A stretch of DNA of 62,230 nt, filler included, from Candidatus Delongbacteria bacterium (GCA_016937995.1; 6 parts of 6 records of this genome joined end to end with filler, not necessarily neighbours in it), one strand, 5' to 3'. Positions 21,157 through 61,609 are shown, counted from the first letter of the whole stretch. Numbers and translations are program-made. Notes: a model not told the origin generated them from the letters alone.

Positions 21157-24100
21157 ATGAAGAAGATAATCATTTTGTTAGTTGTTATTTTTGCAACTGG
21201 TGTTTTTTCTGCTGAGTGGTATTCAAAAATTGAAAGACCTCAGTCAACAAGCAAAGATACTGTTTGGTATACTTACCCTATGGGTGGAGCTTGTATTTTA
21301 AATAATCCTGTGGAAAGAGCAACTTATTATAATATGGATGATTTCGGTATTGAATATCCTGTGTATCTTCATGCGGTCGATGCCAGTTTGATAGATGATG
21401 GGTATGAATATGTTTATAAAATTTATGCAAAAGATGGTGTGACAGTTCTTTGGGATTCAGGAAATCTAATATCACATGATGACCAGGTAAATGAAATATA
21501 TTTAGATACACCGATATTGTTCACAGATAACTTCTGGCTTTCTGTAACTCCTATTTCAGGAGGATTCCCCAGACAATTTGCTGCAGATTATCCTTTTCCA
21601 ACACACAGTTTTATAAGTGATGGTGAAGGAGGATGGATCGATCAGATCGAATATGTGAATGATGCAGAGAGTTATATCGAAAATTATTATTACATATTGG
21701 TTTCAACAAATGATGATCCTGAAATTGATGATATCTATTCACCTTCCTTAAGAAGCATCTCGGGGAACGAATGCTTTATGGATTGGGATATGGATCTGTC
21801 TATCATAATTCAGGATCAGAATCCTGTGATCTCTCCGATGCAATCACAATATTCACTTGACGGTGGTAGTACTTGGACTGATTTTGATATGACTGTTTCT
21901 AAGACAAATTATACTTTTACAGGTACAATTCCAGCTCAGGTTGACGGTACTCCGGGTTTCGTAAAATTCTACATGGAGGATTCGCTTGGAAATGCAGCAT
22001 GGTCAGAAGAAATTAATATTTCATGGTCAAAGGATATGCCTTTATTTGTTGAAGACTTTGAGAATGAAATTTTTCCACCAGAAGGATGGTCTTTAAATAC
22101 AACAGGTGCAGGATGGATAGAAGGTGATATAGCCAGTGGACATTATATTCATAATGGTAGAAGTTGTGCAACTCATATGGATGATAGTGGAATACAGGAT
22201 GACTGGCTGATCACACCTACGATTACAATTCCTGCTATGAATTCAGCTACTTTAACATATTGGCAGTGTACGTATTGGACTATGTATATGAACGGAATTC
22301 ACGAAGTTGGAGTCTCAACAGATGGTGGTACAACTTTCACAACTATATGGGTAGAAGACCCGGGTTATGTTGCAGGTACTTATGAGGATGGAGTTTATTA
22401 TTACAGAACTGCTGCTTTAGATGCTTTTGCCGGTCAGGATGTTAAGATTGGATTCCATTATACCGGAAATTATTCAGATCAGATTTATATTGATGATATA
22501 GAAGTATTTTATGACTATTCAGGACCTGTCATAGTAGATATAATCGGAAATCCAGCTTTGGATCCGGTTATTGGAGCATTTGTAAAGAACGATCTGGATA
22601 TTACAATGACCGTTAACGACGATACAGGGATTCAGTCTATAGTTGGTCATTATTCTTATGACAGTGGTACAACTTGGACAGATCTGCCATTCTCTCAAAC
22701 TAAAGGCGAAGAGAACTGGGTTGGAACTATTCCAGCTGAATCAGCTCCGATAAATGGTATAATTAACTTTGACCTCGTTGATCTTGGAGGTATTGTTTCA
22801 CCGACAACTTCGGATTATGATTTTGAATTTGTGCCCGACAACGATCCTGTAATACTTCATTATGTAAATGGGAATGAAGCATTTGTTAACACTGAAATGA
22901 ACCTGTTAATAAATTTTTATGATGAATCAGAAATTGATACTTGTTATGGCTCATACAGTAAAGATGATTGGGTTACTCAATATGACTTTCAAATGGCTCC
23001 TGCCAAAATACACGAATATACTTATGTTGGAATTATTCCTGCTGAAACTGAACCTGTATATGATGGTGAAGTTCGATTTACTATTGAAGATTCAGAAGGT
23101 AACAGTATGACTACAAGTAGCTATACTGCAAAATGGACAGATGGTAATACAGCATTTTGGGAAGATTTTGAATCCGGTGATTCAAAATGGACATTCACAG
23201 GTAACTGGGGAATAGTAGAGGAAGGAGAGTTTCATTCAAGTACTCATTCATTAACTGAAAGTCCGGGAGGAGATTATCTCTCTGATGAAATTACAACTGC
23301 AACTTTAGCAGTTCCTTTAGATCTTTCCTCATCTTTTGGTGCTGATATGTCATTTTGGTGTAAATATGAAATTGAAGCAGGATTTGACTATACGTATCTT
23401 GATGTTACTATAGATAACGGTGCCAGCTGGTCTACTTTAACATCCTGGGACGGTGAAGGTGTTGACTGGCACGAAGAGAATTTTAATTTGGATCCGTATA
23501 TCATGTACAGTGGATTCAATCTCAGATTCAGGTGGGTTAGCGATGGAGGATTGGAACTGAATGGTATGTACATAGACGATATAAAGATAGATTCATATAA
23601 TTCACCACAGCCGATTGGTCCTATCATAGATCATTCACCTTATGCACCGGTATTTTACGAAGGATCACAGAACTACCACAATTATGTGAATGCATTTGAC
23701 ATATCAGGTGTAGCTTCTGTTGAAGTGATTTACTCAATAGATAGTTTAGAGCAGAATAATATTTCTGCAACATATGTATCGGATAATCAATGGGAATTTG
23801 CATTTCCGGTTCAACAGCCGGGTAAGATAATAGATTATTCTTTCTGGGCTGTGGACAATGACGGATACGAAACTTATGATAACAATACTTACAGAATAGT
23901 AGCTGGAAGACAAAATATTTATGATTCAGGTATAGTCTCATATTATAATACAACAGAAAATGGAGATGCAAAAGCAGTAAAATTTTCACCATTGTATGGA
24001 GAAGTATTATCAACAATTTTAATACGTAATTATGCTGATCCAACCCATATCTCTAATGATATGACTGTTAGAGTATGGACAGATGACGGAGGTATGCCTG

Positions 24101-25555: not shown

Positions 25556-26224
25556 TTACTTCCTTCCCAGCTCTACAAGTTCCATAATAACAGTTGATTT
25601 TATACCATCTGCTGATTCTTCTACAAGCATTGTAGCTACGTTATAAAACTTAACTTTCTTATTACCAAGATAAACTGAATGTGTTCCTTCCTGAGTATCT
25701 TTATCATTATAATACACTGCATCAACAGTGAAAGTACCTGCGGGAACGGTCACTTCCCGTGGTATATTCCACTTTTTATGATCAGTCTTATTAAGTTTCC
25801 CAAAAGTGTTATACGCAGCATCACCCGGTTTAGCTATCTTCAAAGGAATTTTCTCGGGACCATCGTAGAAAAATCCTGTTTTGATATTACCCTCTCTATC
25901 AGATACAAGATCGAACTCAATAGTATTGGCAAATATTGCAGCGACACCGGTTGTATGTGCAGTTTGTTTGATATTTACTCCGGATCTGTTAATATCTGTT
26001 ATCTGGACAGTGACTGTTGTTTCACCGGCCATCTTTTTAGATTGCTCATCCTCAGCATCTATTTTTGATCGGTAGACAGCATAATCACCGACTCTAATAT
26101 TGTCATGTAGCATTATCTTATTGGAGATAGGAGTATTTTTCATCGTACTTTGAAGCATCATGTTCATGCAGGAAGTTAACACAAGTGTTAAGGTCATTAT
26201 TAACAAAAGTATTGTTTTCTTCAT
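25556..26224 (-). CDS. Hypothetical lipoprotein
   Basis: Lipobox LTSC; VTVPAGTF motif. Confidence 0.7.
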   Translation of the reverse strand: MKKTILLLIMTLTLVLTSCMNMMLQSTMKNTPISNKIMLHDNIRVGDYAVYRSKIDAEDEQSKKMAGETTVTVQITDINRSGVNIKQTAHTTGVAAIFANTIEFDLVSDREGNIKTGFFYDGPEKIPLKIAKPGDAAYNTFGKLNKTDHKKWNIPREVTVPAGTFTVDAVYYNDKDTQEGTHSVYLGNKKVKFYNVATMLVEESADGIKSTVIMELVELGRK

Positions 26225-35552: not shown

Positions 35553-35631
35553 ACCTCATACCTCATACCTCATACCTCATACCTCATACTTCATACTTCA
35601 TACTTCATACTTCATACTTCATACTTCATAC
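35553..35631. repeat. Heptamer tandem repeat (ACCTCAT)n grading into (ACTTCAT)n
   Basis: About 11 copies up to the contig end. Confidence 0.95.
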
Positions 35632-43276: not shown

Positions 43277-44149
43277 ATGAATGAAGAAGCTAAAGAGAAG
43301 TATCTCGATTTATTAAAACTTAAAAATTACAGTAAGGCCACGATAAAGTCTTACGGTCATTGCTTTGATCTGTTTTTGGAACATTTCAAAAATGTTGACA
43401 TTAATAATCTTACTAAAGACGACATCACAAGTTTTCTAATAAAAGAACATGAAAAAGGCTTATCATACGGTTATCAGAATCAGATAATCAATGCAATTAA
43501 GTTTTATTACGAGAAAGTTCTTAAGCAAAAGAGAGAACTTTATGATATCCCAAGAGCAAAAAGACCACAAAAACTTCCAGTTGTTTTCAGCGAAGAAGAA
43601 GTGCTCAAATTGATTGGAAGCATTGATAATTTAAAACATAAATCCATATTATACCTTATTTACTCTGCCGGATTAAGGATCAGTGAAGCAGTGAACATGA
43701 AAATTGCCGATATCGACTCAAAAAGAAATGTAGTGATCGTACGGGGCGGAAAAGGTAAAAAAGACAGGACAACACTTCTTTCAGAGAAATTACTTTTAAT
43801 GTTAAGAAAGTATTATGTACAGTTTAGACCTAAAGATTTTCTGTTTGAAGGAGAAAATGGTGGTCAATATTCTATAAAAAGTATACAGAATGTTTTCAAC
43901 AGGGCATTAACGAGATCTGGGATAAGAAAAAAAGCAACAGTACATTCATTAAGACACAGCTTTGCAACTCATCTACTTGAACACGGGACAGACTTAAGAT
44001 ATATTCAGCAATTACTGGGACATAACAGTTCAAAGACAACAGAGATATATACACACATTACGAAGAAGGGAATGGACAAAATAAAGAGTCCACTAGACAA
44101 CCTAGAAGTACAGGAGAAAAAAACGCCATATGGCGGTTTGCCATTTTAA
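43277..44149 (+). CDS. Tyrosine recombinase, integron-integrase-like but without the IntI-specific insertion
   Basis: SAM-like N-terminus (YS..TIKSY, QNQIINAIKFYY), YSAGLRISE, GKGKKDR, HSLRHSFATHLLE, LLGH..KTTEIYTH; short segment between DR and FLF. Confidence 0.93.
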   Translation: MNEEAKEKYLDLLKLKNYSKATIKSYGHCFDLFLEHFKNVDINNLTKDDITSFLIKEHEKGLSYGYQNQIINAIKFYYEKVLKQKRELYDIPRAKRPQKLPVVFSEEEVLKLIGSIDNLKHKSILYLIYSAGLRISEAVNMKIADIDSKRNVVIVRGGKGKKDRTTLLSEKLLLMLRKYYVQFRPKDFLFEGENGGQYSIKSIQNVFNRALTRSGIRKKATVHSLRHSFATHLLEHGTDLRYIQQLLGHNSSKTTEIYTHITKKGMDKIKSPLDNLEVQEKKTPYGGLPF

Positions 44150-44203
44150 CCAGGCACAAACTGGACAGCAAAACGCCATATGGCGTTTTGCCGCACGTTA
44201 GCT
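44120..44203 (+). other. Putative primary (attI-like) recombination site
   Basis: Direct repeat AAAACGCCATATGGCG(G/T)TTTGCC at 44120 and 44170; 24-bp perfect palindrome 44168-44191; ends in G|TTAGCT. Confidence 0.65.
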
Positions 44204-44314
44204 GAAATACCACACACAAAGGAGCTTTTTTATATGATCTATATTTTAGTTGAAATTAATAAAATATATTTGTACAATTCACTAGAAATCCAGTAATTAT
44301 CAGGAGGAAGTAAG

Positions 44315-44485
44315 ATGCAAAAACTTATCACGATTTATGTAAACGGTTTTAGACTAGAAGAATTTTCTGCTAATGAACATTTAAATAAATATCTTAGTGA
44401 TGGATGGTACATTGTTTCTGTTACGACAGCAGGTTCTGGTGAAAAAGTCAAATGGTTAATAACTGTTGTTTTAGGTAAAGACTGA
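44315..44485 (+). CDS. Small 56-aa protein, DUF4177-like
   Basis: Not in the ORF track; CAGGAGG RBS; MQKLITIYVNGFRLEEFSANEHLNKYLSDGWYIVSVTTAGSGEKVKWLITVVLGKD. Confidence 0.65.
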   Translation: MQKLITIYVNGFRLEEFSANEHLNKYLSDGWYIVSVTTAGSGEKVKWLITVVLGKD

Positions 44486-44492
44486 GCTGTAT

Positions 44493-45308
44493 ATGGCAAT
44501 GTTTATTAATATTTCTTGGCCACAAAACAAAAGGTTGAAAGTAGCAACTTCGGCTCATGCGTTCTCTTTGATACATAATTCTCTGAATACCTCAACTTTT
44601 GTTTCAATGATCGGGAGTGATTTGATTGTTAATGGATTATTTGACATCACGAACCTTGTTCCAGATGTTGATCGATATCGTATTTTGTCAAATGTACTAT
44701 CTTCACATAATAATTGTACGGTTTGTCCAAATAATAATAACTTTAAAGATATATTACCCAGCCAGTCATCCTCTTTTGATAAAACGATTGTTCTAGTTAT
44801 CGAATCACCTCACGATCATGAATTTATCTATTTAAATAATAATCTTGTCCCAATTGCACCCGCACAAGCTAATAAGAAAAAAAGAGGGGCTGGATTCGCT
44901 ATAGAAAATTATTTGAAATGTAACATCCTATCACAGATATCAAACTATCCACAACATAATGTCAGAATTATTATAGCTAATCCAATTCAATTTCAGACTT
45001 CGTTATTTGTAATTCATAAGAAAGGCGGTCGAATAGCAAAAGATCTTAGAAATTCGGTTTGGCAAGCCCTATGGCGTCAAAAAAATATTCGGGCCAATTT
45101 TTTTGATAGATTAAAATGCTATGAGCCGGATTTAATAATTAATTCTTGTACTGGGGGTCAAGATAAACGTGGTAGCTTGAATTATTTTATTAGTAAATTT
45201 CTTGTCCAGCACAGTTTTAGCTATATTTCTTATAAAACAGGTCATCCTTCATCTGTATGGTACAGAACAATAAACGGTCGTCCTTTTGCGAAGGTAACAA
45301 AAATATAG
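44493..45308 (+). CDS. Hypothetical protein, possible uracil-DNA glycosylase superfamily fold
   Basis: IVLVIESP, PDLII and GHPSS motifs in the order expected for UDG-like proteins. Confidence 0.55.
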   Translation: MAMFINISWPQNKRLKVATSAHAFSLIHNSLNTSTFVSMIGSDLIVNGLFDITNLVPDVDRYRILSNVLSSHNNCTVCPNNNNFKDILPSQSSSFDKTIVLVIESPHDHEFIYLNNNLVPIAPAQANKKKRGAGFAIENYLKCNILSQISNYPQHNVRIIIANPIQFQTSLFVIHKKGGRIAKDLRNSVWQALWRQKNIRANFFDRLKCYEPDLIINSCTGGQDKRGSLNYFISKFLVQHSFSYISYKTGHPSSVWYRTINGRPFAKVTKI

Positions 45309-45337
45309 GATAATATCTCTCAGTGTGTGGTACTTGC

Positions 45338-45409
45338 AGCTAACATTGGAAAAATGACTTGACCCGAGTTATATTTTATCTAGTGAGCTTTTTTCCATGA
45401 CCGTTATGA
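45338..45409 (+). other. attC-like hairpin site, copy 1
   Basis: AGCTAACATTGGAAAAA...TTTTTCCATGACCG|TTATGA. Confidence 0.8.
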
Positions 45410-45481
45410 TCAATTGCAACTTTAAATAACGGTAGAGGAGGTAGAAGATGTTATACAAGCCTATTTAACCCGATTAAAAAA

Positions 45482-51486: not shown

Positions 51487-52415
51487 TGCAAAAATTTGAC
51501 AGATTAAACAGGATCGGGGATCACTGGAAAAAAAAGTACGGTGCAAAAACCTATAAGCTTATATTCAGAGGTGAATTTACCTGTCCGAACATCGACGGTA
51601 GTCTGAGCAATAAAGGCTGTATTTACTGTAATATGAGATCCCTGGAACCTTTGATAGACAGTAAAAATATCGAAGGACATATAAAATATCTGGAAGATAG
51701 GAATAATGCAGAACTTTTTATAGCTTTCTTTCAGGATTTTTCATCGACCTATCCGGTTCATTCCATTGAAAATAAACATGACTATCTTAAAAAATTGTAC
51801 ACGAGTTCTATTGATAATGATAAAGTTGTCGGCATTTCAATTTCCACAAGACCTGACTGCATAAACACTGAAGTTCTTGATATCCTGGCAGAATTGCAAA
51901 AGGACGTAATAATTGAACTCGGATTACAGACAACCTGTGAAAAAGATATTAAATGGATAAACCGGGGATATGCAAACGATCAATTTATTGAAAGTGTCGA
52001 AATGATAAGATCTTACGGTTTTAATACCGTAGTGCACATTATATTAGGACTGCCAAATGAAACTGACCGGACGATATTAGAAAATGTAAAATTCATCAAT
52101 GCTCTTAAAATTCACGGAATTAAATTTCACCAGTTGATGGTTTTAAAGAACACTGAATTGGAAAATATTTTCAATAAAGGTGAGGTGAACGTATTAGATA
52201 TTCAGGAGTATTTCCGGAGAGTTTCGCTGTTCTTAGCCCATCTTGATAAGAATATCATTATTCACAGACTTTATGGTGACGCACCGAAAAAAGATCTAAT
52301 TGAGCCTCTATGGTGTCTAAATAAAACAGGTATTCAGGATAAATTATTCGATTATCTTGAAGAGCATAATATATGGCAGGGAATGCACCCAAGACCCACA
52401 ACCCATAACCCATAA
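51486..52415 (+). CDS. TIGR01212/YhcC family radical SAM protein
   Basis: FTCPNIDG..GCIYC, STRPDC, ELGLQT, HIILGLP motifs. Confidence 0.9.
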   Translation: MQKFDRLNRIGDHWKKKYGAKTYKLIFRGEFTCPNIDGSLSNKGCIYCNMRSLEPLIDSKNIEGHIKYLEDRNNAELFIAFFQDFSSTYPVHSIENKHDYLKKLYTSSIDNDKVVGISISTRPDCINTEVLDILAELQKDVIIELGLQTTCEKDIKWINRGYANDQFIESVEMIRSYGFNTVVHIILGLPNETDRTILENVKFINALKIHGIKFHQLMVLKNTELENIFNKGEVNVLDIQEYFRRVSLFLAHLDKNIIIHRLYGDAPKKDLIEPLWCLNKTGIQDKLFDYLEEHNIWQGMHPRPTTHNP

Positions 52416-52470
52416 CCCACAACCCACAACCCATAACCCATAACCCACAACCCATAACCCATAACCCACA
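52394..52470. repeat. Heptamer tandem repeat (ACCCAYA)n
   Basis: 11 copies; supplies the last codons and the stop of the radical SAM gene. Confidence 0.95.
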
Positions 52471-52608
52471 ACTATCTTTTAACTATGTTAATCCAATTAT
52501 TTCACATATATTTCATAATATCTAACTGAAAAAAATAAAAATATACATATATTGACATCTGTCAATTTTTGTTTTATATTACTTTCAAACTTTAAAAGGA
52601 GAAACACA

Positions 52609-52948: not shown

Positions 52949-52950
52949 CG

Positions 52951-55900
52951 TTATGATCAATTGCAACTTTAATGACGGTAGGAGGTAAAGATGAACAAGC
53001 CTATTTAACCCGATTTAAAAAATAATTATCTTGTTTCGGGAACAAGAAAACACTACATTAATCTAAACAATATTTTACAAACTAGAGGTATCGTATGAAG
53101 AAAATAGCATTACTCTTAGTTTTTATTGTATCATTGTCTTTATGGGCAATGTCAGATACAGCTAATACAGAACCCGTTGTAAAAGAAAATTCTCAGAAGC
53201 TAACACAAGAAGAACTGCATAATATTGCAGTAAACTACTATCATTACATGTTTGAAGAAGAACATGAATGGAAAGGTATTAGAGTTGATTCTTCACAATC
53301 AGTAATCAAAGATATCTTTCCGTATGTGGAAGATGGAATAACTCTCTTCTATACCGTTAATTTCAATCCTGAAGGACGAATTTATACTCCCGCATATAAA
53401 TTTGTATCAAGACCTATCTTCAAAAGAGGTAGTGGTACAGCAAAAAAAATAAAATCTATAGACGATAAAAAAGCTATGCCCTTCGCGGCAATGCGAGGTT
53501 TCCACTCCATAAGAGAAAAGACATTACAGGGGCTTCAAGGTAAGTGTGAACAAACCGAAAAACAAAAAAAGATGTGGGAAAAATTCAATAAACCACCTAA
53601 TCAGTTTCATGAAAGGGTTAACCATGGATTAGATTTCCGTCCTCCAAAGTGGTGGCTCGAAAAAAAAAACTTTAAAAGTAACAAAAATACTGAAGGAATG
53701 ATCCAGACGGAGTGGAATCAGTATTTCCCCTTTAATAATGACTGTCCGTCACACTCGACAGGTAAAACACTTGTAGGTTGTACACCTCTTGCAATGTCTC
53801 AACTTATGAAATATTATGAATATCCTGAGACTGGTTTAAGTTATAATTCATATGCCTGGTTTAACGGCGAAATCATAAGAACTTTAGAAGCTGACTTTGG
53901 ACTCACAACTTATGACTGGGCTAATATGCCTGCTTATGCAGATTCTTCAAGTTCTCAAACAGAACAGGATGCACTCTCAACTCTTTGTAAGCATGCTGGT
54001 ATTGCCTTAAATGCTGATTATGGTGTTGCTTTAGGCACAGCAGCTTGGGCTGATGACATACCTCACAATATTACAAAATATTTTAACTATACTTCCCAAT
54101 TAATGTCAGAAGTTGCGTGGTATCCTAATGGATTGGCAGACTGGAAAGATTCTCTGATCACTGCTATGCAGAACGGTAAACCTGTTTTATACTCTGCCTT
54201 TTGGAATAGTGACGATCCGGGCAGTCATACTTGGATAGTAGATGATTATAAAATTTCTACAGATGAATTTCACTTTAATATGGGCTGGTATCATCCTGAT
54301 AGTTTAGATTGGAATGACTGGTATCCTGCAGATGATTATTTGAAAGATCAAGATAAAGGTATATTCAATATCATACCAGATAGATCTACAAATGCTCTGC
54401 CTATTCCATATACCGAAACTTTTGAAAACACTTATACAAGTACAACTGTAGCAAGCTCACAAATTCCCAAATACATTGGAATAGAAGAAAACAATTATAG
54501 TACATTACCAGATGTCGGTTACCAAAACAGTAATGTACTTGCAAGATTCTACGTACCTGATTCAGAAGATAGTTTTATTATAAAAAAGATAAACCTTACC
54601 ACTGATTCCGTTCCAATACTTCGTTACAAATACAGGATCAACGATTATCAGAATATCGTAGAAGGTGACAGCCTAATAATTGAAGTTTCTAAAGATAACA
54701 GGCTTTCATGGAAAAAAATCTCTAAAATTGATCATTTGAACTACAATAACACATCATATTATGAAGATAAGATCGTAAGTCTGAATAACTTCAAAAATGA
54801 AATCGTAAACATACGATATCATTTTTACTCGGTCGACAATGCAAATGCATATGATTATTACATCGACGACATCAAAGTTGGTGCACTTGGTTTGCATTTC
54901 ACAGATATATCTTACGATGATATTTTACAGCCTAAGGATGCACAATCTATCAAGATAACACCTTCAATTACACCACCGAAATCCAAAGGTTTTGAAGATT
55001 ATGACATGGCTATGGATTTCTATGTAAAAGAAGATAGCACAGCTATGGATTATATCTTAATGTATTCTGATGAATTACTTGAAAATGGAGTATTTGAATA
55101 TCTTGATTGGGATACGATGGATTTGATGGGTAAAAAATATCTGATTAAAGCAGTTGCAAGAACAAAAAGCAATAATACTTCACTAGACAGCACAGAAACA
55201 AGAGTACAATTCAGTGGGAGAAAATGTTATGTAACTTATCCGGTCAGTTATCAGGATTCAACTACTTTCTTTGATGTTGAGTTACCATTGACAATTGAAG
55301 GATACATTGAAGCTGAGTTGTCCTTCAGAGACACTCTTGAGAGTGGTATAGTTTTAGTTGGTGGCTGGATCTATGATTTCCAGAAAAAATTGTGGACTTA
55401 TGAAGATGAATATGCAGACTCTAACTATTTCTGTGATCCAGAAAATTATATTTATGCTTTATCTAAAGAAGAAAGAGATAAGGCAGTATTTGAATATAAA
55501 GGAGCTGACTTAGATTATATTCCTGAGCACAGATATAGCAAAAATAACCTCAAAAGAATATTACAAGCACAATCTGGAACGGTTAAAGATATAAATCCAA
55601 GTGTAATTTCTAAGTCTCCAAAAGAGCATTTTCAATATAACCCCTTATCTGATCTTCAAAGTCTAAGTAAATATTATTCTAAAATTGAGGATGAGAGTAA
55701 ATTTGATTCAAGAGACATGGTACATTTTGATACAATTTATTATGAACACGCTACTTCTCTGAATCTGTTTCCAGGATTTTATGGTTTTGAAGGAGGTGCG
55801 TACTATAGTGAAAACCTTTGGGAACCAATAGCTGAACGTGACTACCCAATGATCTTGATTCCTAACTGGAAATTGAAGCTAAAAGAAGACCCTTGGTATC

Positions 55901-57391
55901 CTTATGCTATACCTCACAATTCGTTAAGAGAGTACGCACAGAATGATGATGTATACATAGAAATTTGGAGACCTTTTAATGAACCTAATGGTTATAATAT
56001 CGTCTATATTAACATTGCAAGAGATTCTGACAATACTGAAGTTGCTTCATTTCAAATAGATTACAATACAAAAGGCAAAAGATATGTTGAATGGGCAACA
56101 GATGGCACAACTCAACCCGGATTTTATACTATTACAGCTCATGAACAGTTTGAAGGTACGTCTGTAATTGTTTATCAGAGTGAAACTATTCAGATCTGCC
56201 CATTATACGAACACTGGGAGCACAGCGGTACATGGTCAGATATTTGGGAAATAAATGCGGATTCCGATTATTTTAAAATGTACAACTTTATTGCAGGTCA
56301 TCCTGGAATAGGAAATTATTCTCTCGGTGCAGCGTACGACACAGAAACTGGCGAATCTATTGACGAAAGTCTTTCATCTGATGTTGTTTCATTTAACCTT
56401 CAACACGATGCTGTATTTGAAGTTTTCATGGGATTACCTTATGATAGTGGCTTTGAAGATATGTATGCAGATTATAAAGTTCTCTTATCAAAAGATGGAG
56501 GAACAAGTTGGACAGCAATCGCATCAGCAGATAAAGATTTCTATAGTTCATTAGGATTTTCAGCTACTCCAGGTTACAAATTCTATAACTGGTTTACTAC
56601 AATAAAAAATACTGCATCAGAAGAAAACATGATCGTTAAATTCGTATCACAAAACCAAATTGCTCCGCAAGATACAATATCACAACAAATTTGCTTTGAT
56701 GAAATACAAATCAGATACAGAACTGAACCAGTTCCTGACGGAGGTCAAAATTTTGCAGGTATTACGGATGGTAGTAAAGTAGATTTAAGCTGGGATGCAC
56801 CTGTTTCAAAAGGATTACCATTAAACTCTTACTTAATCTATAGAAATGGATTACCTCTTTTTCAGACAACTTCAACCACGCATACTGATTATTCGATAAT
56901 TGAAGATACAATGTATAATTACTCAATTGTTGCCTTTTATGAAGATGCTACAACCGGAGCTACAGATTTTTCATCAATGCTTGATTGTAGTGTAGATATT
57001 TTTGTGTCTTCTATGACTACACCTGCGAATGTTACTATAGCTGAGAATGCAACGAATGTAACAATTACATGGGATGCTGTTACAGGAGCATCAAGTTATA
57101 AAGTATACTCTTCATCCGATCCATACGGAACATTTTCAGAGAATACTAGTGGTTCATTCAATGGTGAGCAATGGGTTGCTCCTCTTACTGAAAGCAAATT
57201 GTTTTATTATGTAGTAGCTACAGATGTTAGTAAGGAAAACAAGAAAATTACTAAAGAAAGAGAATATCGGGTTAAATAGGCTTTTTTTAAGACTACCTGA
57301 TAAAGTTGCAACAGATCATAACATTGGCAAAATATCAATGGTTACTTAGAGAGTTAACTAGGTTTATCCACACTACTTTTTGCCATGACCG
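52951..57391 (+). mobile_element. Large gene cassette (about 4.44 kb) carrying a C10 protease
   Basis: Starts G|TTATGATCAATTGCAACTTTA, ends TAAAGTTGCAACAGATCATAAC plus the hairpin site; second inverted block of 18/18. Confidence 0.75.
53095..57279 (+). CDS. Secreted peptidase C10 (streptopain/SpeB family) with prodomain and multidomain tail
   Basis: Signal peptide; WNQYFPFN, VGCTPLAMSQLM (Cys), SHTWIVD (His), HFNMGW; FN3-like C-terminal modules. Confidence 0.88.
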   Translation: MKKIALLLVFIVSLSLWAMSDTANTEPVVKENSQKLTQEELHNIAVNYYHYMFEEEHEWKGIRVDSSQSVIKDIFPYVEDGITLFYTVNFNPEGRIYTPAYKFVSRPIFKRGSGTAKKIKSIDDKKAMPFAAMRGFHSIREKTLQGLQGKCEQTEKQKKMWEKFNKPPNQFHERVNHGLDFRPPKWWLEKKNFKSNKNTEGMIQTEWNQYFPFNNDCPSHSTGKTLVGCTPLAMSQLMKYYEYPETGLSYNSYAWFNGEIIRTLEADFGLTTYDWANMPAYADSSSSQTEQDALSTLCKHAGIALNADYGVALGTAAWADDIPHNITKYFNYTSQLMSEVAWYPNGLADWKDSLITAMQNGKPVLYSAFWNSDDPGSHTWIVDDYKISTDEFHFNMGWYHPDSLDWNDWYPADDYLKDQDKGIFNIIPDRSTNALPIPYTETFENTYTSTTVASSQIPKYIGIEENNYSTLPDVGYQNSNVLARFYVPDSEDSFIIKKINLTTDSVPILRYKYRINDYQNIVEGDSLIIEVSKDNRLSWKKISKIDHLNYNNTSYYEDKIVSLNNFKNEIVNIRYHFYSVDNANAYDYYIDDIKVGALGLHFTDISYDDILQPKDAQSIKITPSITPPKSKGFEDYDMAMDFYVKEDSTAMDYILMYSDELLENGVFEYLDWDTMDLMGKKYLIKAVARTKSNNTSLDSTETRVQFSGRKCYVTYPVSYQDSTTFFDVELPLTIEGYIEAELSFRDTLESGIVLVGGWIYDFQKKLWTYEDEYADSNYFCDPENYIYALSKEERDKAVFEYKGADLDYIPEHRYSKNNLKRILQAQSGTVKDINPSVISKSPKEHFQYNPLSDLQSLSKYYSKIEDESKFDSRDMVHFDTIYYEHATSLNLFPGFYGFEGGAYYSENLWEPIAERDYPMILIPNWKLKLKEDPWYPYAIPHNSLREYAQNDDVYIEIWRPFNEPNGYNIVYINIARDSDNTEVASFQIDYNTKGKRYVEWATDGTTQPGFYTITAHEQFEGTSVIVYQSETIQICPLYEHWEHSGTWSDIWEINADSDYFKMYNFIAGHPGIGNYSLGAAYDTETGESIDESLSSDVVSFNLQHDAVFEVFMGLPYDSGFEDMYADYKVLLSKDGGTSWTAIASADKDFYSSLGFSATPGYKFYNWFTTIKNTASEENMIVKFVSQNQIAPQDTISQQICFDEIQIRYRTEPVPDGGQNFAGITDGSKVDLSWDAPVSKGLPLNSYLIYRNGLPLFQTTSTTHTDYSIIEDTMYNYSIVAFYEDATTGATDFSSMLDCSVDIFVSSMTTPANVTIAENATNVTITWDAVTGASSYKVYSSSDPYGTFSENTSGSFNGEQWVAPLTESKLFYYVVATDVSKENKKITKEREYRVK

Positions 57392-57394
57392 TTA
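57316..57394 (+). other. attC-like hairpin site, copy 2
   Basis: TCATAACATTGGCAAAA...TTTTTGCCATGACCG|TTA at the contig end. Confidence 0.8.
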
Positions 57395-57494: not shown

Positions 57495-57580
57495 GGGTGC
57501 GCCGGAAAAAGTGGTTTTGAATCCGGAGATCAAACAGTGAAATTAATTAACAGAGGCGACATCTTTGTTGACACAAAGCG
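57495..57580 (+). mobile_element. Possible right end of an IS3-family insertion sequence
   Basis: GC-richer segment; frame ending GAPEKVVLNPEIKQ* then GGCGACATCTTTGTTGACACAAAGCG, resembling ends of some IS3-like elements (recall, not searched). Confidence 0.45.
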
Positions 57581-57622
57581 GGATTGTAGTACTTACTCTT
57601 AAAAAAAAGAAAAATGAACAAG

Positions 57623-57704
57623 GGCTAACATTGGCAAAACATCAATGGGTTACTTGGATATTTAACTCGCTCTTCCCCACTGGTTTTTGCCATGACCGAT
57701 ATAA
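57623..57704 (+). other. attC-like hairpin site, copy 3 (non-canonical right junction)
   Basis: GGCTAACATTGGCAAAA...TTTTTGCCATGACCG|ATATAA. Confidence 0.8.
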
Positions 57705-60700
57705 GTACTATAAGTCCATCCGTCAGGTAATTGTCCGTTATTCTCAAAACTCTCAATTATTGGTAATATCGAGCTGCCTGAATTTGAACTTACGGTTATA
57801 CTTTTTGTGTCAGTTGCCCAGGATTCACCGATCGGTGTAGTATATTTTGCGATGACATAATAACTGTAAGTACCCTCAGGCAGGAAGCAATCTGTAAAAG
57901 TTAAATTTGTTGTAGAATTTAAATAACTTCCATTTCTGTATATGTCATATTCGATTGTCCCTGTTTTCGGTGGAGACCAGCTGAGGATAGCATTGGATTG
58001 TTCAGTACCTGTTCCGAGTGCCAACTCAAATGATTGCGGTCTTGGGAATGTAAGTTCTGTTGTAGTAAGACTGATATTACAGTCGAAAACAGATGTTTCC
58101 TTCAAAGTAGGATGATCTTCCAGCTTTCTGGTTATGGCGTATTCATAAGTTGTATTACTTTCAATTGCAGTATCAATAAATGTAGTTTCAACTGTTGTTC
58201 CTATTTTTGATCCGTCTCTGTATACATTAAAAGTATCGAGAGTTCGCGGTGAATCCTTTTTATAGTTCATTAGCCAGATAATACTGTTTGATTTATCTCC
58301 CTGGGTAGCTGATATGATAGTTGGAGCTTCAGGTACTTCTTCCTTAGTATACATTATTTTAATGTCGTCAATCGCGAAGGTTTGTTCTTTCCATGTCCAG
58401 TCATATGGTGTATAAAATTCCGGCTTTTCTGCTATTACAAATTTAAGCTGCACTTTAGTACCTGCCGATACAGAATCCCCTAAAGAGTAAAAGAACGGTC
58501 GCATACAATTCATCCAGCCTTCTGCTTCTCCGAAATAATCATCATAATCATCCTGTACAGGTTCATACACAGTAAACCAAGCTCCATTATTTATCTTTGC
58601 CTGTACCAGATAACGCGCATAAAGAGGCTGCCATTGTGTAGAATCGTTATCTAAAACTTCTCTCGGTAAACTGACCCATGCGCTTAAAATAGTATGGTGT
58701 GTTTCATTCAATGTTATTTCAGGTGTTACAATCGAAGTTGATACATGGTGATAAGTATCATAATAACCAAGAAGATTCTGCCATTCCAATGGATAATCAC
58801 CTGGAGATATTGATCTTCTGCTTATCCACCATTTGTCAGGATTAGCAGTACTTGAATTTTTGTCCCATCCTTCAGGCCAAAGGTACGGATAATCTTCAAA
58901 GTCATAATACATCGGTGGTATCTGTATCTCTTTTTCCTGCACGATATCTACACCAAGTGAATCATCATACCCAAACGCTTTTATCTGATAAAAGCCGGGA
59001 GTCTGATCATCAGATTTCACCCATCTCATTCCGTCTGACAATCTGAATGAGTCACCTGTTTCAGTACTTAATCCAACTGTTTTATTCTGATTAGAAAATA
59101 TCTGACTTCCAAAAATCCCTTCATTGGTTCTGGCAATCTCACTGCCGTTATGAGTTATTGTCAATGTGTCAATATAGACCGGAAAATCTGTGAATGGTCG
59201 CCAGATATAAACTTTAACATCCTGATTTTTTGAGTATTCTGTCTTTTCAACATATGGAATGAATCCATCTGCATAATATGTACTGTCACAATATAGAAAA
59301 TCACCATGAAGTTTCATTTTCCATGGAGGTATGATTATTTTTGTAGTATCGGGTAAAACTCCAATATATTCATCATCTGTAGGTTCTGCATCATATCCCC
59401 TTGCTATCAGATTATACACTCCCGGTTTCTCCAGATCGAATCTTTCATAACTCCATGTAACAGGATTATCTGTGTCTTTTGATGCTTTTGTTTCAGGTCG
59501 TTTCATTCGTTCATACACTACAGGAATATCATCTGATTTACCTGTAAATTTTAACGGTTCATTATTCCATGGCAATGCACCTGAATCAGTAGGCCATGTG
59601 TATTTATAATTTATAGGAATATCAGGAGTAAATTCATACATTGATAAAGTATCCAACTTAAAATCCTCGTTTATATTGCTACGATCTACGGAATTACTTT
59701 GGGTATCTACAATATCTCCCTCTACCGGGAACCCCAGAAAATCAGGCGTATATGATTCAAAATCCCATACACCATCAAATAAAGGTGTTGACATGGTATT
59801 TCCATCCCAGGATTTTCTTGTCGGATCAACTATTTTTGCATGGACTCCTTCACATACTTCAATATCATCTATCAGACAAAAATTCGAACTTCCTGAATAT
59901 TCAAATCTGAATCTGATGTTAACAACATCATTTTTATACTCATGAAGACTAACGATCTCATCTTTGAATTTATTCAAGTAATCATCAGCTTCGTAATTAT
60001 CTTTATCAAGGACATAAACCGATTCCCATGTCTCTCGGTTATCATTTGAAACTTCAACAATAACTGAATCACCTGTTGAGAAACCACCTTCATCAATAAT
60101 ATCAATCTTGAATTTAACTACAGGTGTTCTGTCGGAAGCACAGATCAGTTTTATTTTCTTGATGACGAACCATTGACTGTTATCTCCTGAATTTCTTATA
60201 TATAAACCTTTTTCTGTTGAGCCATATAATTGTGCGAAAAAAGTACTATAATTATCAAAATGATACAGTATGTGAAACTCCAATATTGGGCGGTATTTGA
60301 TAAATACTGCTTCCGATTATCACATCGTTAAAATCTTCTTTATAAGGTATAACCAATGCACTATCAGGATGATCCGGAATTGTATGAAATATTGCTTTTT
60401 GTGATGTTGTAATTGCTGACATAGGATACCAGTCATTGTAGGTTAAATTCGAATCTCCCATGTTAAAATTGAATTGATTATTGGGGTAATCATAACTGTC
60501 AATTATCCAGCTATGGTTGAAAGTTTGGGAGTTTATAGTTATGGGGCCACCATAAATAATAGGTTGTTTTCTAGCTAAACTCATCTTCAAACTATCAATC
60601 CAGATGTCTAAGGAAGCATACCAAGTTGCTTCTTCTCTTAATTGAGAAGTATAATTAAATTTTTTTGCTAATCCGTGAGGAATATCCTCTAAATTTTCAA

Positions 60701-61609
60701 TTGTAACAGTGGTTCCGTAATTCGCATTAACAGCTAATCCGGCATCTCTACATATTCTAGCTACAGCATCTCTTTGAATCTGAGTAGTCATAAGAGAATC
60801 ATAGGCAAGCATGTTTACCCAATCGTATGTTGTATTAGAAAAATTTTCTAATCCTTTGATAGGATAGCTATAAAATTTCATAAGTTGAGACATTGCTAAA
60901 GGACCGCAACCAACTAGAGTTGTATCTGATGTAATAGTATCAGTAGGACAAAAAATATAGAATGGGAACTTTTGGTGCCACTCAGTTTTAACTAAACCAA
61001 AAGTATTTTTTACTGATTTTGTTGTTTCAAAGCCTTTTTTTTTATCCACCAATCAGGTTGAGGGATACTTTTATCAAAATTTGCTTTTTCATGGAAACTA
61101 TCAGTTGGCACATTGAATTTTTCCCAACTCTTAATCTCTTTGTCATTTGTAAGTATTTTTCTATTTTTGAAAGCCTCAAGTAAACGATTGTAATAATCTA
61201 AATGAAAAGGTGTTAATCTTTTATCAGTGATTGAAAAATATCCTTCTTTAACTCCAAATGTCCATGCCCCATCCCCATTTTGGTCTATAGGAGAACCTAA
61301 ATTTTTATGAGCTTTTATAAGTACATGTCCGTCTGGATTAAAATTTACCATATAAAAAAGCGTTAGTGTATCAGCCTTGAAAGGAGTTATATTCTTAATA
61401 ATCCCTTCATTGTCTTTTCTAAACATTCCTTTAAATTCATGTTCTTCTTCAAACATAAATTTATAGTAATTAATTGCAATATTATGCAGTTCTTCCTGTG
61501 TTAATTTGTATTTCTCCATTTTAGGATCAATTTCACTGCTATCACCTGACATTGCTGTTACAGGTAAGAATAGTATGAGAAATACAAATATTATTAGTTT
61601 ACTTTTCAT
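57662..61609 (-). pseudogene. Paralogous C10 peptidase gene split by two frameshifts and truncated at the 3' end
   Basis: ORFs 61010-61609, 60255-61052 and 57662-60283 are collinear with 53095-57279 (KLTQEELHNIA.NYY..MFEEEHE; TLVGC.PLAMSQLMK; EVS.DNR..W; TPGFY). Confidence 0.85.

Follow-up and report, generated by a model that had tools for sequence, protein, structure and literature searches.

A protease gene interrupted at an attC-like hairpin site in a Delongbacteria genome: probable insertion of an integron-type cassette at a secondary 5'-GAT-3' site

How does the open reading frame (ORF) of a protease gene come to run straight into a recombination site and to end inside it? The question is raised by a locus in a draft genome of Candidatus Delongbacteria bacterium (GCA_016937995.1; 2.75 Mb, 99 contigs, 97% complete), where a gene for a C10 (streptopain-family) protease is fused to an attC-like hairpin site. 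The window, that is, the whole stretch of 62,230 nucleotides that was analysed, consists of six whole contigs of this genome joined by masked linkers (N...TTAATTAATTAA...N), namely C12, C15, C16, C20, C23 (52949-57394) and C24 (57495-62230), and their order across the linkers is meaningless. Comparisons were made within a related set of 16 genomes of the bacterial family from 7 genera, in which the genome studied is G000. The locus on C24 very probably arose when site-specific recombination placed a cassette at a secondary 5'-GAT-3' site within the C10 protease gene, the other junction of the event lying on contig C39 of the same genome.

The 5' part of the protease gene occupies 57699-61609 on the minus strand, spread over three frames (61609-61010, 61052-60255 and 60283-57662), and is cut after ...TYSTYI. 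The last of these ORFs ends in ...LPDGWTYSTYI (IIESFENNGQLPDGWTYSTYI) and is continued by 11 site-derived residues, GHGKNQWGRAS, and a stop (57662-57698, minus strand), the stop codon at 57662-57664 lying inside the hairpin site. Eleven crossover positions of this kind were examined in the genome (10 full copies of the site and a partial one at the start of C43), and only at C24 does a long ORF cross, with 884 codons from stop to stop versus at most 59 at the other 10. The middle piece of the C24 gene scores 107.5 bits against Peptidase_C10 (Pfam, cut-off 26), and an intact paralogue of 1394 aa on C23, to which the C24 protease is 38-41% identical, scores 142.9 bits. An orthologue from the same genus, G001:C377, is 69% identical over residues 1-298 when the last 312 residues are used as the query, and runs about 220 residues past ...LPDGWSF, adding a further domain and an FN3-like C-terminal module. 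Since this orthologue continues, intact relatives do not end in GHGKNQWGRAS, and the truncation claimed in a preliminary description of the locus is borne out. The protein at 21157 that served there for comparison is no C10 protease but a MAM protein with a type IX secretion system (T9SS) tail, and the site copy at 57320-57391 that was taken for a neighbour of the junction lies on a different contig, at the end of C23. The first frameshift falls at a run of nine A (61035-61043, minus strand), and is either a real shift or a homopolymer error; the second falls within 60255-60283 (minus strand), a zone without a long homopolymer, both having been located by ORF overlap and alignment to the paralogue. 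Lacking its last two modules and carrying two frameshifts, the truncated gene is most likely a pseudogene.

If the gene was interrupted by a cassette, its missing 3' part should abut a G↓TT cassette start (the arrow marks the point of exchange), as the preliminary description predicted, and such a place was found on C39. With the C-terminus of the orthologue as query, tblastn returned C39:27599-26943 on the minus strand (52.5% identity over 219 residues, E 4.8e-67); the 3' part of the gene, C39:26943-27600 (minus strand), lies 200 nt from the contig end and is open to its stop. The gene that follows this fragment is a homologue of the gene downstream of the orthologue, so that synteny is conserved. 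On the orthologue the two pieces tile with no overlap and no gap to speak of, the C24 piece covering residues 3-706 and the C39 piece residues 712-925, and the GGT GAR codons at the break are conserved. Read on the plus strand, C39 has ...TTTCACCG↓TTAGCCC... and C24 has ...CATGACCG↓ATATAAG..., the latter junction, between site and gene body, lying at 57698-57699. The C39 start TTAGCCC and the R'' box GGGCTAA (GGGCTAAC) of the C24 site are perfectly complementary, about 20 further nt of the two arms also largely so, and the first 86 nt that follow the junction on C39 share 94% identity with the DNA after a normal copy of the site on C70. The target is GAT, which fits 5'-GWT-3', and the gene halves flank this cassette type without loss or duplication. 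Recombination at a secondary G↓AT site, proposed at first from the C24 side, thus has its reciprocal junction on C39. As ACCG stands to the immediate left of the exchange in both partners, the crossover is bracketed to five bonds with G↓ as the rightmost; the earlier mapping to the bond just after the G lies within this bracket and is not singled out by it. Two runs of one study in the public data, X1 and X2, contain the stretch and were compared as Logan contigs. A contig of 4064 nt from X1 (record 7) covers 57634-58700 with 0 differences; from 57698/57699 it reaches 65 nt into the site and more than 1000 nt into the gene.

The site at the junction is one of a family. Its core, AACATTGGCAAAA and TTTTTGCCATGACCG around a variable centre (57627-57698, plus strand), lies 133 nt into C24 and is complete to the crossover G at 57698. 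Before it stands the right (R''-side) cassette arm (57581-57626, plus strand), which ends in GGGCT before AAC, is complementary to the C39 cassette start TTAGCCCTAATT at 20 of the first 23 aligned positions, and is of a type also present on C32, C68 and C70. The conserved 15-mer end of the site occurs three times in the window (0.13 expected), a number that 0 of 100 shuffles reach. The full pattern has 10 matches in this genome and 70 in 10 of the 16 family genomes (6 of the 7 genera), and the reversed pattern, used as a control, has none in the 16. That the C24 copy continues after its G with ATATAAG in place of TTA sets it apart, as had been noticed: it is the only one of the 70 matches with a base other than T at this position, and among 44 copies whose flanks were examined 43 have TT and one, that on C24, has AT. 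No other G↓A junction of the family was found in metagenome contigs (0 hits) or in the 16 genomes. AAC...GTT (AT in the C24 copy) is present in every one of the 45 unique cores, which are 57-75 nt long and combine conserved ends with variable centres. On the bottom strand, the family shares an invariant stem of 7-8 bp, an unpaired spacer of 6 and 3 nt beside AAC/GTT and a variable distal stem, which in the C24 copy fold as GGCAAAA/TTTTGCC and CAGTGGG/CCCATTG. In 17 related copies of the long subtype, 98.7% of cells pair. A scan of 35732-62230 against Rfam (E <= 1) returned two tRNAs only and no family for the hairpin site.

Sites of this type form arrays on the same strand. Spacings of 0.7-1.7 kb are frequent, and some cassettes measure 4-14 kb. 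When 21 consecutive site pairs were compared, the 8 nt that follow GTT agreed with the complement of the 8 nt before the next AAC at 5.67 of 8 positions on average, versus 2.93 of 8 in an adjacent control taken from the bases after the same site (n=41). Cassette bounds at G↓TT, with an R'' flank complementary to the start of the same cassette, were also checked by eye in C23, C16, C32 and C39/C24. Judged by these comparisons of sequence, the hairpin-site family behaves as integron cassettes.

The locus can then be derived in a few steps. An integron-type cassette, presumably a free circle with its folded bottom strand as the substrate, would have recombined with a secondary site in the chromosomal C10 protease gene. 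The cassette would have taken part through its own hairpin site, at the usual ...CCATGACCG↓TT point, and the gene through ...TTTCACCG followed by ATATAAG..., a 5'-GAT-3' site on the plus strand. The product would read gene 3' part, G↓TT with the cassette, hairpin with G↓AT, gene 5' part. At a later time an insertion sequence (IS) would have landed in the cassette, and the assembler would have split the locus into C39, with the gene 3' part and the cassette start, and C24, with the cassette end, the hairpin and the gene 5' part. The locus supports a natural case of cassette insertion, a known process, in a non-canonical integron-like system.

The right end of this rve-type IS lies within the inserted cassette at 57495-57580 (plus strand), where C24 starts, and is recognised by its matches on C19 and C56. 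C24:3-86 is the reverse complement of the C19 end, and C24:1-86 is 98.8% identical to C56:218181-218266, the place where a transposase ORF ends that encodes rve, rve_3 and HTH_32 domains in 298 aa (348 codons from stop to stop). On the other side, the last 87 nt of C39 (27714-27800) are identical to the last 87 nt of C51. The IS (C56:218181-219331) is present in at least three copies, its left end being found on C39 and C51 and its right end on C24, C19 and C56, and the assembly is broken at this locus because such a multi-copy element sits inside the insert. The simplest reading is that C39 and C24 would be joined through one copy of it. Only about 230 nt of the cassette (arms, a terminator-like hairpin and the site) are visible outside the IS. 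Since the insert contains an IS and the gene has two frameshifts, the insertion is not recent; it is later than the split from the G001 lineage, and not fresh. The suggestion that the recombinase has been active thus holds for the past, and not for recent times.

A candidate recombinase is encoded at 43277-44149 (plus strand), where profile and alignment identify a compact IntI-like tyrosine recombinase without the I2 insertion. It is one of three paralogous integrases of 279-372 aa (on C16, C43 and C78) that share with the canonical IntI of G012 and G008, two related genomes, 36-40% identity and the C-terminus ...SPLD. They lack 43 alignment columns, in which the I2 region lies, relative to the IntI of G012 and G008 and to the structure 2a3v. 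The compact integrase genes point to the array; a palindrome pair and ...CACG↓TT come within about 50-130 nt, and beyond this point the homologous loci part, unless the contig stops there. Among 12 integrase ORFs examined, the palindrome, CACG↓TT and divergence were seen in six (C16, L032-L035 and L038), and the other six are cut by contig ends. On C16, this attI-like site (a palindrome, then GCCGCACG↓TT; 44170-44199, plus strand, with G↓T between 44197 and 44198) follows the integrase gene, and the first cassette, 44198-45403, is closed by a core site at 45342-45403 whose R'' flank CAGCTAAC is complementary to the cassette start GTTAGCTG. A first cassette closing with the same type of site and a matching R'' flank was also found in G002:C104 with another paralogue, where the integrase ORF is broken and the attI-like layout is the same. 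In L032, the 2.9 kb retrieved beyond the attI-like point contain no hairpin site of this type. A loose attI pattern that allowed 3 mismatches returned mostly chance hits and was not used for counts.

Relatives of the compact integrases were sought by scanning one genome per species, which confirmed at least 523, and the best 80 of these were fetched as loci; Bacteroidota account for most of the 80, and the rest come from Cloacimonadota, Spirochaetota, Patescibacteria and others. For the 38 loci that extend at least 1 kb downstream, a word of GTT and six further nt, taken 20-300 nt beyond the stop, recurs downstream as its exact reverse complement 25 times, versus twice upstream, and by eye about 20 of the 25 downstream hits lie at a palindrome and G↓TT followed by an attC-like inverted repeat. 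Given that the insertion took place, the enzyme was somewhat more probably than otherwise one of the compact I2-less integrases of this genome. Whether the junction is the footprint of a widespread undescribed class of integron, with I2-less integrases (more than 523 loci in several phyla), its own attI-like site and hairpin cassettes, and with off-target insertion at G↓WT as well, is a proposal that we hold to be evenly balanced. The arrangement of integrase, palindromes, attI-like site and cassette recurs in many phyla. Two side observations concern the same integrases: a long-read metagenome-assembled genome (MAG) contains three identical copies that diverge exactly after G↓TT (L065-L067), and some members of the family are apparently linked instead to IS91-type transposases, as read from the sequence of L138.

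Several points weigh against the proposed insertion and the proposed enzyme. In this 97%-complete genome no IntI exceeds the TIGR02249 cut-off of 265, the best whole-protein score being 214.4, and the helix by which IntI docks extrahelical bases is missing from the compact integrases. As evidence for folding, covariation in the hairpin sites is modest, with two pairs showing compensatory change in three cells only, and hairpin energies are weak (mean z -1.4 over 45 copies); folding of single sequences gave z of -0.2 to -1.0 for four strands, which is weak alone. The arms, being A/T-rich, score 37 for complementarity, below the highest value among shuffles (41), so that this measure lacks significance, and the R-box rule is relied on in its place. 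With ACCG shared by both partners, the junctions alone would be compatible with a 4-bp target duplication or a microhomology event. X1 is perhaps the sample behind the genome assembly, so that its bridging contig excludes an artefact of the original assembler and no more, and the X2 contigs do not reach the junction 57698/57699. A search of metagenome contigs for the empty site or another allele, made with a 26-nt stretch of the gene side, gave 0 hits. C39 and C24 are not joined in the assembly, and no convincing target duplication pairs the IS flanks on the two left-end and three right-end contigs.

Of the other explanations, the one that fares best keeps the insertion and changes the enzyme: a canonical I2-bearing IntI, since lost, unassembled or acting in trans, would have catalysed the event, the compact integrases being unrelated to the sites. 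Canonical IntI does exist in 2 of the 16 family genomes (G012, 400 bits; G008, 336 bits), one of which, G008, has one site of this type; integron regions assemble poorly, and several genomes that carry the sites have no compact-integrase match at E <= 1e-30. Yet the low IntI scores given above for a nearly complete genome speak against this explanation too, and in G012 (L041, G012:C68 4629-7300) the canonical I2-bearing intI is followed by GC-rich attC sites of classical appearance and of another type, with no AACATTGG sites in that genome. Moreover, two paralogous compact integrases lie directly before an attI-like G↓TT and a first cassette ending in the site type in question. A canonical enzyme is thus considered unlikely. 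Since G012 combines a canonical intI with classical-looking sites, two kinds of cassette system coexist in the bacterial family.

The insertion of a transposon, or of a palindromic element resembling a miniature inverted-repeat transposable element (MITE), with duplication of a 4-bp ACCG target, would account for ACCG at both junctions, for the length of the inverted arms and for the rve transposase within the insert. However, all 70 pattern matches end in ACCG or TCCG, as the search pattern requires, and among the matches listed all have ACCG, those inside arrays included, except C32:4745-4815 (TCCG). As copies of the site end in this way, in arrays too, ACCG is part of the site and not a duplication. 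The insert is a circular permutation of the compact palindrome in C70, with arms at its left end and 72 nt inside its right end, and the IS, which has ends of its own, is also present at loci that lack the site, so that a transposition of this kind is very improbable. The same low probability is given to an illegitimate (microhomology-mediated) or IS-mediated rearrangement that joined unrelated DNA by chance, for which the 4-nt microhomology and the ability of IS copies to mediate rearrangements could be invoked, and against which stand two reciprocal junctions placed exactly at the cassette boundary of the family, outer halves that belong to one cassette type (TTAGCCC/GGGCTAA) and a gene from which no sequence was lost or duplicated. 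Least credible of all is an assembly chimera or a natural gene end, the latter as an ordinary cassette boundary altered by a T-to-A mutation. Repeats have broken this draft MAG at many points, and a T-to-A reversal would give a normal TTA start, but an independent X1 contig bridges the junction, the orthologue continues, the remainder of the gene is present at the reciprocal junction, and the closing site that a protease carried as a reversed cassette would have at the far end of C24 was sought there and none was found.

How does cassette insertion at C24, as preferred here, compare with what has been described? Earlier work on secondary sites of IntI1 is reportedly due to Francia (1993) and Recchia (1994). 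Passages of a preprint by Loot et al. (bioRxiv 10.1101/2022.09.11.507474) state that IntI1, IntI2 and IntI3 insert cassettes at genomic 5'-GWT-3' sites, termed attG, with cleavage after the G and disruption of genes. Such attC x attG insertions, seen as single attC sites lacking integron integrases (SALINs) or as small clusters of them (CALINs), resemble the present case in having a TT... cassette bound and a folded site ending in G, a GAT target with exchange after the G, a disrupted gene, and a downstream site left with a non-cognate right half. They differ in that the C24 site is of a non-canonical attC type in a genome without canonical IntI, and in that the case is natural and comes from a lineage not in culture; both of its junctions were recovered, and an IS later entered the insert. 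Classical integrons (VchIntIA, PDB 2a3v) share with the present sites the AAC/GTT boxes, the G↓TT crossover, a variable centre between conserved inverted boxes, cassettes whose R'' flank is complementary to their own start, arrays spaced at 0.7-1.7 kb and an attI-like site beside the integrase gene. In contrast to them, the candidate integrases here lack the I2 of about 43 residues and point to the array, with attI after the 3' end of the gene; the unpaired spacer is asymmetric (6 nt versus 3 nt), and some cassettes are very large (4.4 kb for the protease) or have their genes reversed. The geometry of the folded site presumably differs from that of canonical attC. Orphan arrays, finally, are alike in that arrays of these sites occur without an IntI that passes the IntI-specific test, but because a compact integrase and an attI-like site are found at some arrays, the arrays here are probably not orphan.

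According to the part of PMC7790495 consulted, the I2 helix is an acquisition through which folded attC sites could be recombined, and a lack of intermediates is noted there; an excerpt of Smyshlyaev et al. (PMC8138268) calls the insertion 'not fully conserved' in the integron-like subgroup. In the literature, with supplements outside the search, no description was found of I2-less integrases with cassette arrays, nor of integrons in Delongbacteria. Cassette insertion outside integrons has been demonstrated in the laboratory only recently, and rarely does a natural case allow both junctions, an intact orthologue and the disrupted gene to be read together, as C24/C39 does. If compact I2-less integrases carried out the insertion, the capture of hairpin-site cassettes, including capture off target at G↓WT, needs no I2 helix, and this, if true, bears on the evolution of integron integrases from Xer-like recombinases.

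Large secreted-protease genes travel as cassettes in this lineage, and C23 is an example, the contig being exactly one 4.4-kb cassette (52949-57394, plus strand) that starts at CG↓TTATGATC and ends in GATCATAAC...CCATGACCG↓TTA. It carries the intact 1394-aa C10 protease paralogue (53095-57279) and its core site at 57320-57391. The C16 end (45404-45481) is 87.5% identical to the C23 start, as a distinct copy, and a further protease-type cassette therefore probably follows the C16 array. The FN3-like C-terminal module of about 85 residues in the C23 protease (residues 1310-1394, window 57016-57279), which is the module lost by the truncated C24 protease, is encoded in ORFs on about 20 contigs of the genome (e.g. 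C34, C19, C7 and C79) and perhaps acts next to the T9SS tail as a second signal for sorting or anchoring. At G000:C70 (L058, 377-9027), sites of the family enclose four consecutive genes for T9SS-tail (Por_Secre_tail) proteins that are oriented against the sites, which is unusual for integron cassettes.

A conserved module of about 75 nt, consisting of GTTGTG..CACAAC, a second half-site ATTGGCAAAAT and ...ATCATCTATGGGTCCGAATGCTTTAGCA, was seen after four sites and is followed by unrelated housekeeping genes; in G000 it was located at C32:5972-6050, C39:613-690, C43:19-95, on C68 (minus strand) below 38444, and on C19 near 25680-25750. It may represent an array-terminal or chromosomal attachment junction. 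The terminal repeats of the rve-type IS resemble the distal arms of GGGCT-type cassettes, and in C19 the IS abuts this module, so the IS may prefer such palindromes. Elsewhere in the window, tandem 7-nt repeats stand at or near contig ends at 1-96, 35553-35631 and 52373-52484 (GAAGTTA, ACCTCAT/ACTTCAT and ACCCACA/ACCCATA), and the start of C12 also matches the end of C73.

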